Assembly (NCBI GenBank): GCA_045863855.1
Contig: BTVV01000088.1
Location: 1-25,594, forward strand
DNA: 25,594 nucleotides
Direction of reading: 5' to 3'
Source: Planctomycetota bacterium
GTDB lineage: Bacteria; Planctomycetota; SZUA-567; H5-PLA8
A model generated the notes under the pieces. The model was not told where the DNA came from. It saw only the letters and a list, made by a program, of their open reading frames with translations, and did no database searches. Below are positions 1 to 6,414 of this stretch, piece by piece; the stretch's first letter is position 1, and each line of letters opens with the position of its first letter. The translations under genes were made by a program, and so were the position numbers.

Positions 1-118
1 GGCTCCAGAGCGTCGTCCAGGTGTTACCGCGTGCGTCTATGCGGTCCTTGCGGCGCTTGTCGAGCCAGTAGGTGAATGGCTGGGTGGGAGCGGATTGGCT
101 CTTGAGGTCCAAGGGCTC
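1..118 (-). pseudogene. Rhs/YD-repeat fragment running off the left window edge
   Basis: The minus-strand translation reads EPLDLKSQSAPTQPFTYWLDKRRKDRIDARGNTWTTLWS. FTY…RxxxxDARGNT matches the Rhs/YD repeat pattern. It lies downstream of, and co-oriented with, the Rhs toxin-immunity module. It is truncated by the window, so it could be part of a longer ORF. Confidence 0.5.
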
Positions 119-120
119 TG

Positions 121-380
121 GGCTTCGTACGCGAATCCACCGAGTACGCCTACGACTCCGCTGGTCGCGGGTTCAAAAGAGGCGGGTTCCTTCGCGAGCG
201 CCACCATGTGGGGATCTTACCATACCGGCCGTCCCTGCGCCTGTGCTCGGGGCTTGGGCGCCACACTCCACAGGCTCATGGGACGGGCTACACCTATACC
301 GATCCGCCCCTATGCGTACGACACGCTCCTGGCGGGTGCGGGACCAGTTCGACGAGGACGGCTGGCACGAGGAGATTCGC
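121..380 (+). pseudogene. degenerate Rhs/YD-repeat remnants in the opposite orientation
   Basis: Plus-strand pieces in different frames read STEYAYDSAGR (136-168), GYTYTD (286-303) and YAYDTL (311-328). A frameshift then gives RVRDQFDEDG. No continuous ORF joins them. Confidence 0.4.
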
Positions 381-476
381 GGCCGCTTCCCGAACAGCCA
401 CGAGCGGATGCTGGAGGATTAACGCGCGCGGCGGGGACGGTCTCGGCTGTCCGTCCTCCGCTTGCGGCGCTACGGC

Positions 477-701
477 CTATTCGACGGCCCCTTCATCCCC
501 TGATCCGCCACGCGACGAGTTTTTGCGTAGGACGCGGTTCCTAATAAATGCATTCCAATAACACACTGCTTCTATGTGCTGCGTTCTAGTTAAAAGAACT
601 CTATTTTGAGGGTCGTGAGGATTCCCCCCTATGATTATTGGTGTTATTTCAAAGATTTCAAAGCCACGACTATTGGGAGGTCGAGCTGCTTTAGCGTTCA
701 T
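477..701 (-). CDS. small protein resembling the upstream HNH-like toxin core, with His replaced by Phe
   Basis: The ATG is 7 nt after the SMI1 stop, in the same low-GC block. RGFEIFEITPIIIGGNPHDPQNRVLLTRTQH…YWN aligns with the toxin's RGWEVHEIQPVKWGGSPTDIGNKMPLPPYYH…WWN. Confidence 0.75.
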   Translation of the reverse strand: MNAKAARPPNSRGFEIFEITPIIIGGNPHDPQNRVLLTRTQHIEAVCYWNAFIRNRVLRKNSSRGGSGDEGAVE

Positions 702-708
702 TTTTTTG

Positions 709-1113
709 TCATTTTGATGCCAGACCGACCAAGAAATCTAGGAAGGTTCCCCCTACCTTTCGCACATGATCGAGCCCCATCCCTACAAAAGGCACGCTAA
801 CGAAAGTAGGGGGTTCGGTGCGCAAATCCAACGCATAGGCTTCACCTCCTCCGCTGGACCCAATCAGAAATAATCCTGGTGCATACTCATCTACTTTGTA
901 GTCACGATTAAACTCCAATAGTTCATGTGCGCTCCAGAACATTACATATGACTTCCCTATGAAGCCCTCACCACCATCTGTATACAAAAGGAACTCAAGA
1001 TATTCCGACGGCAGACCCCGTCCTAAACCCTCTTGAACCCTATCAATTTCTTCCTTAGATGCATTCCCAACACTTGAAAAATCAGTAAGCAATTCTGGCA
1101 ATGAAGCCGCCAT
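709..1113 (-). CDS. SMI1/KNR4 (SUKH superfamily) immunity protein
   Basis: Typical SUKH pattern: ASKEEIDRVQEGLGRGLPSEYLEFLLYTDGGEG…FLIGSSGGGEAYALD…GTFLDFL. Its start overlaps the toxin stop (TAATG). Confidence 0.93.
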   Translation of the reverse strand: MAASLPELLTDFSSVGNASKEEIDRVQEGLGRGLPSEYLEFLLYTDGGEGFIGKSYVMFWSAHELLEFNRDYKVDEYAPGLFLIGSSGGGEAYALDLRTEPPTFVSVPFVGMGLDHVRKVGGTFLDFLVGLASK

Positions 1114-2450
1114 TACCCACCTCCGTGAGGCAAGGTAAGCCTCTCAATTTCCTTTTGAATGTTATTCCACCAAGGTGTGACTTCGGATCTATGGTAATAG
1201 GGAGGAAGTGGCATTTTGTTTCCAATGTCTGTGGGACTTCCGCCCCACTTAACAGGTTGAATTTCATGCACCTCCCAGCCTCGCAACCCTGGATTTTCTG
1301 CCCGTAGAGATGCATTCGCAGCATTAGCAGAATCACGGGCCGCTTCATATTCCGCTCCCTGCAAGAGCTTAAACGGACCTTGTGGTCGAGGCAAGTAGCT
1401 TGGATACCCTTGCCATCCAAGTTCCGTAATGGAAAATGCGCCTTCAGAGATAGATGGTGCGGACTCTCTAGCGGTTAGCCTTTTCCACGCAGCCTTATAT
1501 GCCTCAACACTTTCAAACCCTACGGGAGGGCCTGTACGAACAGCTGCGCTTTCTAGCTTGGCTGCCCAATTGATCCCAATACCCTCATAGCCATTTCTAA
1601 GTCCTGAAACTGAGAGTGCTCCGCCAATTCCTGCTCGACCAGTATTTAGAATTGTCCGAACAGCTCTCTCTCCACCTGTAAGCCTTCCTCGGTCGTACTG
1701 ACCTAGATTGTATACATCCTCCCCTTCCAATGCCCCAATGGACAGGGTGTTAAAAAAGGAGTAGGCGGCCACATTGGGGCCGTAGTACCACTTTCCCTGC
1801 CTTTCCTGCTCCCGAATTGCACCAAGCCACCGTCCCGAATCCTTGTTTTCGACATCAGCGATCTGAGCGATTTGCTCGGCGCTGTACTCGGCGTGTCGTT
1901 CCGCCCTTCGTAGGAGCAATCGAGTCTGGACAACTCTTGTTATCTCATTAAGCCGAGTTTCTGAGTGGGGAGAACTCAATGCCGCGCGGCCAAACTCTCC
2001 CCACATGACGAGGTTATGCAGCTGATCGATCCCTTTATCATCAGCTATAAAGTCACCACCTAGTCCACCAAAGATTTCATATCTTCCCTTACCGACATGC
2101 CGTCCAATCGGAATCCGTCGAAGCACTTTGCCTGCGTATCCTTCACCGTCAGTCACCACCCAGTAGATTGCATCTTGGTCTCCCGTAGGGTCATTGCGAT
2201 TACCATAATCAATGTAGTCCAACCCCATCGGATCCCACCGATTAACCGGATCGCTGCCCGCGTAGTTGTACGTGTTCAGCCCGCCGGAGTACCCGATCGG
2301 GTCCCACGAGGTGAAGCGGCCTATGCCGGGTGAGTAGTAGCGATTGCGCAGGTAGACTTGGCCGGCGCCTTCATCGTGGAGTTGCCCGCGGTGGCCCGGC
2401 GCAGCCGAAGGTAGGGCCCACCCCGCCCACCGTGATGCTCGACTGACGGT
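1113..2450 (-). CDS. orphan Rhs core-end plus C-terminal HNH-like nuclease toxin (5'-truncated; first ATG at 2228)
   Basis: The frame is open from the TGA at 2451-2453. It encodes GHRGQLHDEGAGQVYLRNRYYSPGIGRFTSWDPIGYSGGLNTYNYAGSDPVNRWDPMGL, the Rhs-associated core with its DPxGL motif. A ~370-aa low-GC tip follows, ending in VHEIQPVKWGGSPTDIGNK…H…WWN. An SMI1/KNR4 gene comes next. Confidence 0.88.
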   Translation of the reverse strand, partial: TVSRASRWAGWALPSAAPGHRGQLHDEGAGQVYLRNRYYSPGIGRFTSWDPIGYSGGLNTYNYAGSDPVNRWDPMGLDYIDYGNRNDPTGDQDAIYWVVTDGEGYAGKVLRRIPIGRHVGKGRYEIFGGLGGDFIADDKGIDQLHNLVMWGEFGRAALSSPHSETRLNEITRVVQTRLLLRRAERHAEYSAEQIAQIADVENKDSGRWLGAIREQERQGKWYYGPNVAAYSFFNTLSIGALEGEDVYNLGQYDRGRLTGGERAVRTILNTGRAGIGGALSVSGLRNGYEGIGINWAAKLESAAVRTGPPVGFESVEAYKAAWKRLTARESAPSISEGAFSITELGWQGYPSYLPRPQGPFKLLQGAEYEAARDSANAANASLRAENPGLRGWEVHEIQPVKWGGSPTDIGNKMPLPPYYHRSEVTPWWNNIQKEIERLTLPHGGG

Positions 2451-2478
2451 TCAGCCGGTCGTAATCGAAGCTCGTGAC
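2428..2478 (-). pseudogene. out-of-frame YD repeat remnant upstream of the Rhs core-end
   Basis: Reads VTSFDYDRLNRQSSITV in a different frame from the core-end. That frame is bounded upstream by a TGA at 2542-2544. Confidence 0.6.
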
Positions 2479-2540
2479 GTTAGGCCGGTTGGACGTCAGG
2501 GCAGGCGCCGCGACGTTTGCTCCACGGTCTCTGTGCCCGC

Positions 2541-2568: not shown

Positions 2569-2604
2569 ATCCTGTGACGGTCTACTTGCTTGAGGACCGT
2601 CACC

Positions 2605-3003
2605 GTGAGCGTGCCCGAACTCATACGCATTCTGTACGTCGAAGACGAACCCGATATCCGCCTGGTCACTGCCATGGCCCTCGAAAAAGTCGCCAAATTC
2701 ACCCTCAAATCCTGCTCTTCGGGCGCGGAAGCCCTTGCCGCCGCGTCGGACTTTGCGCCCCAGCTCCTGATCCTCGATGTGATGATGCCGGCCCTCGACG
2801 GTCCCGCGACCCTCGCCAAGCTGCGCGAACGGCCCGCCACCGCCGATACGCCCGCCATCTTCCTTACCGCCAAATCCCAGGCCCACGAGATCCGGCGGTA
2901 CCTGGACCTTGGCGCCATCGAGGTCATCGTCAAGCCTTACGAGCCCATGACCCTCGGCACGCGCGTGCGCGAGATCTGGGCGCGCTACCACGGACAGGTG
3001 TAG
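2605..3003 (+). CDS. single-domain response regulator (CheY-like receiver)
   Basis: ILYVEDEPDI…LILDVMMPALDG…FLTAK…VKPY carries all the conserved REC residues. A GAGGA RBS precedes the GTG at 2605; the ORF track start at 2590 is probably too long. Confidence 0.93.
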   Translation: MSVPELIRILYVEDEPDIRLVTAMALEKVAKFTLKSCSSGAEALAAASDFAPQLLILDVMMPALDGPATLAKLRERPATADTPAIFLTAKSQAHEIRRYLDLGAIEVIVKPYEPMTLGTRVREIWARYHGQV

Positions 3004-3015
3004 CGGCCCGGACCC

Positions 3016-6000
3016 ATGAGCGTACCGCCGCCCACCAGCCACCTGCGCCACCAGCTACAGGCCGCCGCCGCGCCTCCCGCGCCCGCGCGCCGGCCCATCC
3101 TCTACCCGCTCTTGCTCATCGCCGCCGGTGTCGCCGTCTCCGCCGTGGCCTGGTGGTTGATCCGCGAAGACCAACACGATTTGATTCAATCGCGCTTCGA
3201 ACTGGAAGCCCGCGAGCGCGTCCTCAACATCGAGCGCGAACTGGAAGTGGACATGGGCGCGCTGGAGGCGCTGCGCGCGTTTTACGCGGGTTCGCAAAGC
3301 GTCGAGCGGGACGAGTTTAAAGCCTTCTGCGAGGTGCTGCTAAAGAGGTACCGCGGCCTGCGCGCCCTGGAATGGGTGCCGCGCGTCGAACCGGAACACC
3401 GGGCGGCGTTCGAAGCTCAAATGCGCCGGGACGGCCTGCCCGAGTTCGCGATTCAAACCATTGGAGCGGACGGCAAGAGCAGGGTTTCCGTGCCGGAAGG
3501 TAGAGTGACCTACCCGATCGCCTTTGCCGAGCCCGCGCCCGAGAACGCGGGCGTCCTGGGCGTGAGTTTCGACTTCGAAGCCATTCGCCGCGCCACCTTG
3601 GAAGCGGCCCGCGACGAAGGCCGGATCGTCGTATCCGGCCTGACCCATCTCATTCAGGACACCGACGCCAACCCCGCTTTCGTCGCCGTCCAGCCTGTTT
3701 ACCGGAACGGAACATCGACCGCGACGGTGGAGGAACGGCGTGCGAACTTGGCCGGGTTCCTGGTAGGCGCCTTCGAGTTCCAAAGTTTGTTCGAGCAGGC
3801 CTTGGTGCCTTTAAGCATCGTCGGCATCGACTTGAAACTTTTTGAAGGAGGTCCCGGCGGAAATGGGCAGTTGCTCTTCGATCGCCCTTCGCGCAAGCAA
3901 TCTCCCCGCAGTTCCACCCCCGCGCCGGAAAGCCTCGAATTCTGGTCCGCGCTCGAAGTGCCCGGCCGTACGTGGAGTATCCGCGCCAGTCCTTCCCCGG
4001 CGTATACGGTCGAAATTAACCCTTGGCTGTCTTGGATTACGCTGCTCATCGGACTGGTCCTGACCGGCTTGGTGGCCGGACTGCTCGAAAGCCAGTTGAC
4101 CCGCGCCCGCGAAATCGAGGCCCAGGTTCAGGAACGTTCCCGCGAACTGCGCCGCGTCAACGCCGACCTCCAGGCCATCCTCGATTCGCCCACCTACACC
4201 TGCATCACCGCCACCGATGCGCAGGGCCGCTTCACTTTTTGGAACAAGGGGGGCGAACGGCTCTTCGGGTACGCCGCCTCCGAACTGGTGGGGAAGGAAA
4301 GCCTCCTCAAGCTCTTCGCCCCGGCGGAATTGTCCGCGCGCTCCAAGGACCTTTCCGGGCGCATGAAGCGCTCCGTCGAAGGGCTGGAAGTCTTAACCCT
4401 CCTGGCCGAAACCGGCGTCGTCGACGAACGCGAATGGACCTTCGTGCGCAAGGACGGCCGAGCGTGCTACGTGAACTTGGCGATCTCCGCGATCTTCGGC
4501 GAGTCCGGCGAGCTCACCGGCTACCTCGGCGTCGCCCGCGACGTCACGCGCCAGAAACTGGCCGAAGATGCGTTGCGCGAAAGCGAACGCCGCTTGGCCA
4601 TGGCCATGGAAGGCGCGCGCCTGGCCAGCTTCGACGCCGACGCGGTCGCGCGAAAAGTAAATTCCACGCCCGGGCTGGGGCGCATGCTGGGCTACGCCCA
4701 CGACGACATCTTCCCCGACTTCGACGCCTGGGCCGCCGGCACGCACCCCGACGATTTCCCGGCCGCGCAGCGCCAGTTCGCCGCGCTCCTGGCCGGCGAA
4801 GAACCGTACTTCCAGATCGAACAGCGCTACCGCACCCAGACCGGCGGCTGGAAATGGCTGGCCGCGCGCGGCTCCGTTGTCGAACGCGACTCCGCCGGAC
4901 GGCCCCGGCGCGTGGCCGGCACCTTTCAGGATATCGACGACCGCAAACGCGCCGAGCGGCTCAAGGACGAGTTTGTCTCCGTCGTCAGCCACGAACTGCG
5001 CACGCCGCTCACCGCGATCCGCGGCTCTTTGGGGCTTTTGGACGGCGGAGCCGCCGGCGCGCTCCCCGCCGAAGCCGCCCAGATGCTCCAACTGGCCTTG
5101 CGCAACACCGAACGCCTCGCGCGGCTCATCAACGATATTCTCGACAGCGAACGCATCGAGGCCGGCAAGATCGTCTTCGACCTGCGGCCCGTCGACCTCG
5201 GCAGCCTCATCGCCCAGGCCCTCGAACAGAACCGGCCGTTCGCGCAGCAGTTCGACGTGCGCCTGGAAGGGCGCGACCTGGAGCGCGTGCCGGTCGTGCA
5301 GGCCGACGCCGAACGCCTCATTCAGGTGCTCACCAACCTGATCTCCAACGCGGTCAAGTATTCGCCTTCCGGGCAGGCGGTGGAAGTCGCCGTAAGTGTC
5401 GACGGCGCCAAGGCCCGGGTTTCCGTCGCCGACCGCGGACCGGGCATCCCGGAGGAATTCCGCGCGCGCATCTTCGAACGCTTCAGCCAGGCCGACGCCA
5501 CCACGACGCGCAAGCAGGCCGGTTCGGGGCTGGGCCTGGCCATCAGCAAAGCGATCGTCGAACGCATGGGCGGGCGCATCGGCTTCGATTCCGAACCCGG
5601 CGTGCGCACGGCCTTCTGGTTCGAACTCCCCGTCGTCGCCGATCTTCCCAAGCTCTCGCTGGCCCCCTCCGAAGGCACGCTGCGAGGCAGGCGCATCCTG
5701 GTCTGCGAGGACGACACCGACGTCGCCTCGCTCTTGCGCCTCGTCTTCGAACGCGAAGGCGCCGCCGTGGACGTCTGCCGCAGCACCGCCGAAGCGCGCA
5801 CCTTGCTCGAAAGCCAGACCTACGACGCCCTCTCGCTGGACCTGATCCTGCCCGGGGAAGACGGGACGCAGCTCTTCGAAGAGCTGCGCGCCCATCCGCG
5901 CACGCGCGAACTGCCGGTGGTGGTCGTCAGCGGCGTGGCCGACGAGCGCCGCAAGGTGCTCAACGGCGGCGCCGTCGGCGTGCTGGATTGGATCAAAAAG

Positions 6001-6414
6001 CCCATCGATACGCGCCGCCTGATCGATGCGGTCCGGCGCGCCGTGCGCCCCGACGGCCACGTAGGCCCCTGGCGCGTGCTTTACGTCGAAGACGAACCCG
6101 AACTGATCTCCCTGGTCGCCAGCCTGCTCAACAAAACCGCCTCCGTCGTGCCGGCCAAGACCGTCGCCGAAGCCCGCCGCCTGCTCAAGGAATCCTCCTA
6201 CGACCTCCTCCTGCTCGACGTGGGGCTCCCCGACGGCTCCGGGCTCGACCTGCTGGGTGACTTGCCCCATACCCCCAACCGCGCCGTGCCCGTCCTGGTC
6301 TTCACCGCCAACGAACTGACCGCCGACCGTGCGCGACAAGTCAGCGCTGCTCTGATTAAGTCCAAGACCTCCCACGAAGACCTGCTGGCCACCATCACCC
6401 GCCTGCTGAAATAA
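3016..6414 (+). CDS. hybrid sensor histidine kinase: TM-CHASE-TM-PAS-PAS-HisKA-HATPase-REC-REC
   Basis: CHASE motifs (EFKAF…ALEWVPRV…YPIAFAEP…RRATLEAARDEG) lie between two TM segments. PAS/PAC motifs include WNKGGERLFGY, RKDG and HPDD. Kinase motifs are the H-box SHELRTPL, NLISNAVKY, DRGPGI and GSGLGLAI. Two receivers follow (LSLDLILP, LLLDVGLP). Confidence 0.95.
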   Translation: MSVPPPTSHLRHQLQAAAAPPAPARRPILYPLLLIAAGVAVSAVAWWLIREDQHDLIQSRFELEARERVLNIERELEVDMGALEALRAFYAGSQSVERDEFKAFCEVLLKRYRGLRALEWVPRVEPEHRAAFEAQMRRDGLPEFAIQTIGADGKSRVSVPEGRVTYPIAFAEPAPENAGVLGVSFDFEAIRRATLEAARDEGRIVVSGLTHLIQDTDANPAFVAVQPVYRNGTSTATVEERRANLAGFLVGAFEFQSLFEQALVPLSIVGIDLKLFEGGPGGNGQLLFDRPSRKQSPRSSTPAPESLEFWSALEVPGRTWSIRASPSPAYTVEINPWLSWITLLIGLVLTGLVAGLLESQLTRAREIEAQVQERSRELRRVNADLQAILDSPTYTCITATDAQGRFTFWNKGGERLFGYAASELVGKESLLKLFAPAELSARSKDLSGRMKRSVEGLEVLTLLAETGVVDEREWTFVRKDGRACYVNLAISAIFGESGELTGYLGVARDVTRQKLAEDALRESERRLAMAMEGARLASFDADAVARKVNSTPGLGRMLGYAHDDIFPDFDAWAAGTHPDDFPAAQRQFAALLAGEEPYFQIEQRYRTQTGGWKWLAARGSVVERDSAGRPRRVAGTFQDIDDRKRAERLKDEFVSVVSHELRTPLTAIRGSLGLLDGGAAGALPAEAAQMLQLALRNTERLARLINDILDSERIEAGKIVFDLRPVDLGSLIAQALEQNRPFAQQFDVRLEGRDLERVPVVQADAERLIQVLTNLISNAVKYSPSGQAVEVAVSVDGAKARVSVADRGPGIPEEFRARIFERFSQADATTTRKQAGSGLGLAISKAIVERMGGRIGFDSEPGVRTAFWFELPVVADLPKLSLAPSEGTLRGRRILVCEDDTDVASLLRLVFEREGAAVDVCRSTAEARTLLESQTYDALSLDLILPGEDGTQLFEELRAHPRTRELPVVVVSGVADERRKVLNGGAVGVLDWIKKPIDTRRLIDAVRRAVRPDGHVGPWRVLYVEDEPELISLVASLLNKTASVVPAKTVAEARRLLKESSYDLLLLDVGLPDGSGLDLLGDLPHTPNRAVPVLVFTANELTADRARQVSAALIKSKTSHEDLLATITRLLK

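Follow-up and report, generated by a model that had tools for sequence, protein, structure and literature searches.

A His-less paralog of a predicted toxin nuclease core linked to SUKH immunity genes, and its possible role in splitting the toxin

We find that the small gene trailing the SUKH-1 immunity gene of an orphan Rhs toxin cassette belongs to a family of nuclease-core paralogs, here called pseudo-cores, that lack the first His of the toxin core. The first-pass annotation had taken this gene for a catalytically dead relative of the neighboring toxin with a possible function in immunity. The phylogenetic tree, the loss of the His, the dN/dS values and the gene neighborhood now support a conserved, selected pseudo-nuclease that is associated with both SUKH and this toxin family. 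In one form or another, the ORF very probably functions within the SUKH immunity module. As to the form, we favor, at a probability of roughly 55%, a SUKH-bound pseudo-core that would be the second subunit of the SUKH immunity factor, replacing the toxin's own core and so splitting and locking the toxin.

An orphan Rhs cassette and its trailing gene

The window, by which we mean the whole 25,594-nt stretch that was analyzed (contig C88 of a 6.9-Mb genome with 64% GC), carries a minus-strand cassette of low GC content (0.46-0.51 versus ~0.64 around it) made up of an Rhs core remnant, a toxin tip, a SUKH-1 gene and a 74-aa ORF (Table 1). The SUKH-1 gene overlaps the stop of the toxin tip, and the ORF starts 7 nt after the SUKH-1 stop. 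This start is a second ATG, in frame. Another ATG, which overlaps the SUKH stop (700-712, minus strand), occupies the position at which members of the family most often start, but it is in a different frame from the ORF, from which a short A run separates it. Family sequence does not extend over the final ~19 codons (481-534), which read into a ~55-bp repeat.

Table 1 Features of the cassette in the window.
Feature	Position	Strand	Remarks
Pseudo-core gene, 74 aa, ATG start	477..701	-	His-less paralog of the toxin beta-beta-alpha core
Conserved part of pseudo-core, residues 13-53	543..665	-	Invariant P21, G25, G26, N33, R39, H42, W49, N50
Phe17 of pseudo-core	651..653	-	Position of the toxin's first His (putatively that of colicin E9 His102, a metal ligand)
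SUKH-1 (SMI1/KNR4) immunity gene, 134 aa	709..1113	-	PF09346
Orphan Rhs toxin tip; 371 aa, counted from the Met in DPxG	1113..2228	-	C-terminal ~110 aa are a predicted HNH-type domain
Toxin N-terminal subdomain	1278..1436	-	Sole toxin residues named in the predicted pseudo-core contact (toxin-chain residues 7-59)
Toxin beta-beta-alpha core	1137..1274	-	His (1266-1268), Glu, Lys, Asn, second His (1191-1193)
Broken Rhs core remnant	2229..2510	-	Lacks a start; has a stop at 2451-2453 and, in another frame, pieces of YD repeats
~55-bp genomic repeat at cassette edge; ORF tail reads into it	481..534		blastn copies elsewhere in the genome

In the same genome, blastn found copies of this repeat on seven other contigs (C13, C118, C129, C144, C149, C163 with two copies, and C186), several of them near contig ends, and the repeat may be a recombination or insertion site. 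The copy on C186 borders a second low-GC orphan Rhs cassette (C186:7500-9109, minus strand), with which the cassette of the window shares an identical 42-aa tail of the Rhs core and the same downstream flank; its tip is unrelated, with an HExxH-like motif (read by eye), and is followed by a small downstream gene. A third Rhs tip of the genome lies on C200. Two further observations concern the surroundings of the cassette in the window. On one side lies a convergent small gene (72-422, plus strand), apparently degenerate, whose end shares 82% identity with a gene at C186:7068-7373. On the other, a response regulator and a CHASE-PAS hybrid histidine kinase (2590-6414, plus strand) diverge from the Rhs remnant; these are ordinary host genes, unrelated to the cassette.

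The toxin gene in the window is an orphan remnant of a family (window 1113-1454, minus strand) that is found on Rhs and other carriers, has a His-Glu pair in 67 of 71 toxin cores and has no model in Pfam, NCBIfam or PADLOC. A fold search with a model of the toxin returned HNH/NucB nucleases as its best rows at Z 6.4-5.0, with middling values (Z 6.4, rmsd 6.9, 92 aligned; Z 5.5, rmsd 3.2, 87 aligned). Foldseek on the same model gave no row at E ≤ 0.001, the weak rows being mostly HNH/colicin DNases, and a PDB sequence search with the toxin tip alone gave no match. We regard the toxin as a predicted DNA-cutting HNH nuclease. The idea that it corresponds to Bacillus subtilis YxiD with YxxD/YxxE found no support in the descriptions given in the accessible portions of the literature. 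The gene directly behind this nuclease toxin tip matches PF09346 (E 2e-15, 57.8 bits versus a cut-off of 25.4) and PDB entry 3d5p (E 2e-12).

The likeness of the ORF to the toxin core, on which the first-pass annotation was built, goes beyond chance, since BLASTP aligns the two proteins with 21/61 identities (E 1e-8) and profile-profile comparison of the ORF with the toxin core gives a probability of 99.2% (E 2.7e-19). The ungapped comparison (13/31 identities) and the correspondence between the His codon 1266-1268 of the toxin and the Phe codon 651-653 of the ORF were reproduced exactly, and the ORF indeed has its own ATG and carries neither the toxin's N-terminal subdomain nor an Rhs core. 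It was also rightly judged to be no recent duplicate, with a DNA identity to the toxin of only 45/93 and, as shown below, an old family of its own. Homology to the toxin core thus stands, whereas descent as a copy of the adjacent toxin does not.

AlphaFold2 folds the ORF with pLDDT 85-95 over residues 11-60, with strands at 14-18 and 34-38 and a helix from 39, and the features of the HNH / beta-beta-alpha-Me fold (two antiparallel strands, an omega loop with Asn, and a core helix) are all present. A fold search was weak, its top two rows being HNH domains (Z 3.5, rmsd 3.3, 50 aligned; Z 3.3, rmsd 4.8, 48 aligned). No family in Pfam, NCBIfam or PADLOC covers the ORF. It matches the PHROG family phrog_22091 (68 aa, unknown function) at E 1e-12, and the ORF, SUKH and toxin are each represented in PHROGs as families of unknown function. 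A word-index protein search with the ORF found no match, whereas an exhaustive phmmer search did find relatives.

A single-origin family without the first His

That phmmer search, run over 1.84 billion representatives, gave 164 matches at E ≤ 0.001. Among the best 150 of these 164, anchoring on the motif succeeded for 139 and failed for 11; the anchored matches comprised 22 toxins with the N-terminal subdomain, 83 short stand-alone proteins and 34 proteins fused to SUKH. All 22 listed toxins with the subdomain keep both His residues and the Lys. Among the 117 listed non-toxin matches, the first His is kept in 19 and both are kept in 14, five of which look like toxin fragments; the other nine have lost the Lys. 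In five non-toxin matches with the first His, Tyr replaces the second (P0052, P0064, P0067, P0078 and P0144), which would be a second way of breaking the same metal site. Pfam recognized SMI1_KNR4, SUKH_5 or SUKH_6 in 18 of 19 fused proteins examined, P0062 matching nothing, and one SUKH fusion carries the pseudo-core at its N-terminus. The phmmer matches P0002 and P0149, as well as P0024, were rejected as spurious repeats.

A tree was built from 42 columns of 64 pseudo-cores and 71 toxin cores, leaving out four toxin cores that could not be anchored. A single branch separates the two sets (SH-aLRT 99) and each pseudo-core is nearest to another pseudo-core. The first His is present in 0/64 pseudo-cores versus 70/71 toxin cores, and it is absent from all 32 toxin-anchored copies, which were found without using any residue pattern. 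Moreover, the pseudo-cores are no closer to the toxin next to them than to other toxins (distances of 0.496 versus 0.495, p 0.47, 50 triplets), with none closer to its own. Recurrent local duplication from the adjacent toxin was rejected on the tree and these distances, and the sequences point to an old family of single origin rather than to local duplicates. Pairwise dN/dS among relatives ranged from 0.02 to 0.30, mostly below the values for SUKH, in the 22 of 36 pairs that were computable (the pairs are not independent, 14 showed synonymous saturation, and the set consists of relatives, the window's own copy being outside it). For the family as a whole, the expectation that homologues consistently lack the His and do not evolve neutrally was therefore borne out, and the notion that they are truncated orphan toxin tips failed as well.

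The probable role of the lost His can be read from colicin E9. An ungapped alignment of the family with its residues 95-130, weak in itself (E 0.24-0.4), places Phe17 at His102, Glu18 at His103, Asn33 at Asn118 and His42 at His127. The toxin aligns with pyocin AP41 in the same register, also as a weak match (E 0.2-0.3 for the colicin E9/AP41 matches). According to the accessible text on colicin E9, Mg is bound by His102 and His127 and water is activated by His103 (bioRxiv 10.1101/2020.04.29.068437); the general HNH catalytic scheme is described in PMC5714182, as far as its available text goes. By this register, the ORF would have lost a metal ligand and not the general base, and the toxin would have Glu at the base position. 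The general-base His at the end of strand 1 is absent from the ORF, which has Glu18 there, as does the toxin family. The metal site of the ORF is incomplete, with Phe17 for the His102 equivalent and the His127 equivalent (His42) kept, and the toxin's invariant Lys is missing as well. In pseudo-cores the first His and the Lys are replaced by hydrophobic residues, the Asn and the second His are kept, and a new invariant Arg is gained. From these substitutions we infer that the ORF is catalytically inactive. The toxin, in turn, would bind its metal through two His and have Glu where the base is expected. An active precedent for His-Glu exists in Rehh, in which His52 is a ligand and Glu53 is required, according to the accessible part of the preprint (bioRxiv 10.64898/2026.09.22.753552).

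Genomic association with SUKH and the toxin

A scan of species genomes with a narrow alignment of the ORF found 31 loci in at least eight phyla (two identical in sequence and two on one contig). The neighborhood with SMI1/KNR4, for which the first-pass annotation had suggested a check, is conserved: SUKH lies within 200 nt upstream in 31/31 loci, with eight in-frame fusions. The toxin core precedes SUKH in 21 of the 31. The other ten comprise two loci at a contig edge and eight without this toxin in at least 450 nt of upstream DNA, one of which follows a small gene and a long toxin-like gene unrelated to this toxin.

The reverse search started from the toxin and covered the best 80 of 300 metagenome matches, 77 of which have SUKH. 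After dropping 12 uninformative loci (no SUKH or short downstream DNA), the ORF was present in 41/68 toxin-anchored loci from these best 80, or 32/53 after removal of near-copies. SUKH without a pseudo-core was found in the other 21 of these 53 non-redundant loci, so the pseudo-core is not generally required. On the SUKH tree, presence of the pseudo-core was clustered (5 changes versus 19.6 when shuffled, 84 rows, 0/500), a result that is partly built in, as 29 rows were found via the ORF. Divergent SUKH groups are without it, and four rows without it fall among pseudo-core-bearing SUKHs.

In viral contigs, the triplet was found at 8 of 10 toxin-anchored loci (several near-identical), one locus having SUKH only and one having no match. 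One viral contig (L118:4106-4680, also L120) carries a second SUKH and pseudo-core pair ~430 nt behind the first, duplicated as a unit. Nothing matched in a scan of viral contigs with a single protein or in a tblastn search of annotated phages. The plasmid collection contained one Hymenobacter Rhs tip with SUKH, behind which another Rhs gene, and not a small ORF, is annotated. In the phylum of the window, 3/401 genomes match, and in its family 0/7, so that the cassette is patchy.

Coupling to SUKH is also evident in the start codons. Among 54 split loci, 51 have their nearest in-frame start at -17 to +12 nt from the SUKH stop, with a 4-nt overlap in 15 of the 51; the nearest start was chosen at each locus, which favors small gaps. 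Programmed readthrough or a fixed frameshift from SUKH was considered and rejected, as split loci use all three frames (24, 21 and 9 of 54), all with a start codon. Fused forms make up 10/64 loci, and fusions occur as the first immunity gene behind a toxin tip (L060, L030). Because of the fusions, the toxin-free cassettes and the duplicated SUKH and ORF pair, the genomic partner of the pseudo-core is SUKH rather than the toxin.

A predicted complex, its readings and known systems

We made one complex prediction, of toxin tip, SUKH and pseudo-core with a 46-row alignment each, in which the pseudo-core was scored. The three-chain scores were 0.90, 0.89 and 0.90, and the best of three controls reached 0.01; the score mark is reached by 116/157 solved complexes and 2/215 mismatched pairs and holds roughly for a three-chain job with its own alignments. 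The runs share at least 75% of contacts, with a partner pLDDT of at least 76. In the model, the pseudo-core is predicted to sit on the invariant surface of SUKH and on the toxin N-terminal subdomain, replacing the toxin's own core. Its helix is predicted to contact SUKH at E49, Y72, Y77, S86, G88-G90 and P108-M112, which are invariant or nearly so. The toxin contacts named are all from residues 7-59 and none from the core at 61-106, although an unnamed residue is no proof of no contact. Confidence of the other chains was 72-74 with the pseudo-core versus 86-87 without it, a drop that is as expected if the native core is displaced. The model speaks for binding. The core swap may itself be a modelling artefact, as predictors can exchange homologous segments between chains, and may thus reflect resemblance instead of function. 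The first-pass annotation had offered a second immunity factor acting on the toxin and a partner of the SUKH protein as separate options; the prediction joins them, with the pseudo-core binding SUKH and the toxin N-terminal subdomain together.

Columns at the predicted interface are more conserved than others, both in SUKH (0.86 versus 0.55) and in the toxin N-terminal subdomain (0.76 versus 0.55); conservation of the latter surface is expected in any case, since the native core packs on it, which weakens the interface argument for the swap. In partial Mantel tests, which are independent of the model, pseudo-core distances tracked those of SUKH (r 0.38, p 0.0005) and, weakly, of the toxin N-terminal subdomain (r 0.21, p 0.012) but not those of the toxin core (r -0.16). 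Results were similar after thinning to 36 rows; the effects are small and taxon and GC are shared confounders.

The mechanism that we favor would begin with a pseudo-core that travels with one SUKH-1 subfamily, as the next gene or as part of a fusion, and keeping the structural core residues without the first His and the invariant Lys, both as observed above. Its helix is then predicted to dock on the conserved SUKH surface while its strands pack on the toxin N-terminal subdomain. The native core would thereby be evicted and the metal site left incomplete, locking the toxin in a split state. SUKH alone would often give basic immunity, which the pseudo-core may make more durable or extend to related toxins. 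A pure SUKH blocker would be hard to reconcile with fusions in the place of the first immunity gene after the toxin. Against this mechanism stand the putative nature of the toxin's own activity, given Glu at the base position, and the state of the window's toxin gene as an orphan remnant.

Appreciably less probable is that the pseudo-core fills the toxin site of SUKH when no toxin is there, stabilizes SUKH and leaves when the toxin comes, SUKH neutralizing alone. The 25 lowest-error predicted pairs are all between SUKH and the pseudo-core, whose distances track SUKH best, and the SUKH interface residues are largely kept in SUKHs without a pseudo-core as well, and so are likely a toxin-binding site; toxin-free cassettes also fit. 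However, a placeholder fused to SUKH would be a competitor of the toxin in cis, and fusions are nonetheless frequent both among the 139 listed anchored matches and among the loci, the face of the pseudo-core away from SUKH is conserved (E15 96%, K34 89%, aromatic 48), and there is residual tracking of the toxin N-terminal subdomain.

It is unlikely that the pseudo-core alone binds the intact toxin, for example through a self-association surface, as an independent second immunity factor or dimer poison like Tdi5b beside Tdi5a. Dual immunity to one beta-beta-alpha DNase is documented in the accessible text of PMC13392607, and a homotypic surface could have been retained through descent shared with the toxin, but the pseudo-core was never found without SUKH upstream where flanks were readable, and replacing SUKH in the model brought the score to 0.01 and the partner pLDDT to 36. 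Still less likely is a selfish or signalling remnant, a mildly toxic or DNA-binding free pseudo-core held by SUKH that maintains the cassette or reports arrival of the toxin: although the Asn, second His and new Arg are kept, a few members keep both His, and SUKH and ORF pairs persist without the toxin, the replacement of the first His and Lys by hydrophobic residues and the frequent SUKH fusion speak against it. Functionless decay of an orphan tip or recent partial duplicate is highly improbable and already contradicted for the family, for despite an orphan Rhs cassette of low GC, a setting in which remnants are commonplace, and a window copy whose tail reads into a repeat and to which the dN/dS of its relatives does not extend, the family is of single origin across phyla with fixed substitutions, coupled start codons and purifying selection, and the ORF, which has neither core nor N-terminal subdomain, has no SUKH or other immunity gene of its own downstream in the window.

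The immunity protein Tdi consists of a GAD-like and a DUF1851 domain, and Pfam detected neither in the 19 fused pseudo-core proteins. In Tde/Tdi, an element of Tdi that mimics an active-site motif of the Ntox15 DNase displaces that motif and splits the nuclease, as seen crystallographically in the available text of the reports (PMC13556189; PMC10470768). As in our prediction, the mimic packs on N-terminal helices of the toxin; orphan immunity copies are likewise common, and P(hydrophobic)4GG in Tdi versus PD(X)3GG in Tde resembles P-hydrophobic3-GG in the ORF versus P-x-K-x-GG in the toxin. In contrast, our cognate toxin is not an Ntox15 HxxD nuclease (no Pfam match for the toxin or 19 relatives), and the Tdi mimic described there is a short motif inside one immunity protein, whereas here a homolog of the whole beta-beta-alpha core has its own gene or is fused to SUKH-1. 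The Tdi mechanism is crystallographic, whereas displacement by the pseudo-core is predicted. The displacement route has only a partial precedent in this mimicry, and what would be new is a paralog of the whole catalytic core.

By mechanism Tde/Tdi is the closest of the known systems, by gene layout Tde5 is, and HipBST is a more distant analog. In the accessible account of Tde5 with Tdi5a/Tdi5b (PMC13392607), two small genes also follow a beta-beta-alpha toxin and form a three-part complex, but the two act independently and without mutual contact, and no homology to the toxin is described for them, whereas ours is toxin-derived and predicted to depend on SUKH. HipBST, as far as described in the text available, is likewise a toxin module of three genes, and its antitoxin HipS has homology to the N-terminal part of HipA; unlike our system, it is an intracellular toxin-antitoxin kinase in which HipS complements a split toxin, with no dead catalytic copy. 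The Tox-REHH toxins (Rehh) also have a His-Glu dyad with a His metal ligand, and some pair with SUKH. According to the available part of the preprint (bioRxiv 10.64898/2026.09.22.753552), which has no mention there of a pseudo-core, they are defined by an Arg, the His-Glu, two further His and large insertions, their three metal His being spread over 69 residues, whereas our toxin is compact and colicin-like with two His 25 residues apart, the second of which is its one further invariant His; by description, the two are set apart.

The survey of the SUKH superfamily (PMC3113570) also places SUKH-1 behind nuclease toxin tips; its accessible text has no inactive-nuclease partner or fusion, and most ORFs shorter than 80 aa in such neighborhoods were set aside there as likely false predictions. 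The supplement file of PMC3482391, in its accessible part, holds none of the motifs. Across the literature covered, including the accessible text of these two founding surveys and with subscription papers and supplements (of PMC3113570 and preprints) mostly outside it, there was no description of a SUKH gene with an inactive paralog of a nuclease core next to it or in fusion with it. Thus, the pseudo-core arrangement is apparently undescribed. The system fails the defining features of each of Tde/Tdi, Tde5/Tdi5 and HipBST.

To our knowledge, almost every immunity protein works by blocking the active site of a toxin to which it is unrelated, and we know of one worked-out precedent for displacement by mimicry, Tdi, from 2026. 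The origin of the mimic, which is open for Tdi, is visible here in a core paralog that appears to be of single origin, with a fixed loss of the putative metal ligand and a SUKH partner. At even odds, in our estimate, a SUKH-chaperoned dead core would disassemble widespread His-Glu HNH toxins by subdomain exchange, gripping their most conserved buried surface and thus giving cross-protection that is hard to escape, as two genes or one fusion interchangeably, and spreading as a toxin-free cassette. The locus also flags an unnamed family of predicted HNH toxins with Glu at what would be the usual general-base position. How new immunity mechanisms may arise from toxin duplicates, and what role the small ORFs trailing SUKH genes may have, would be testable here with small proteins.
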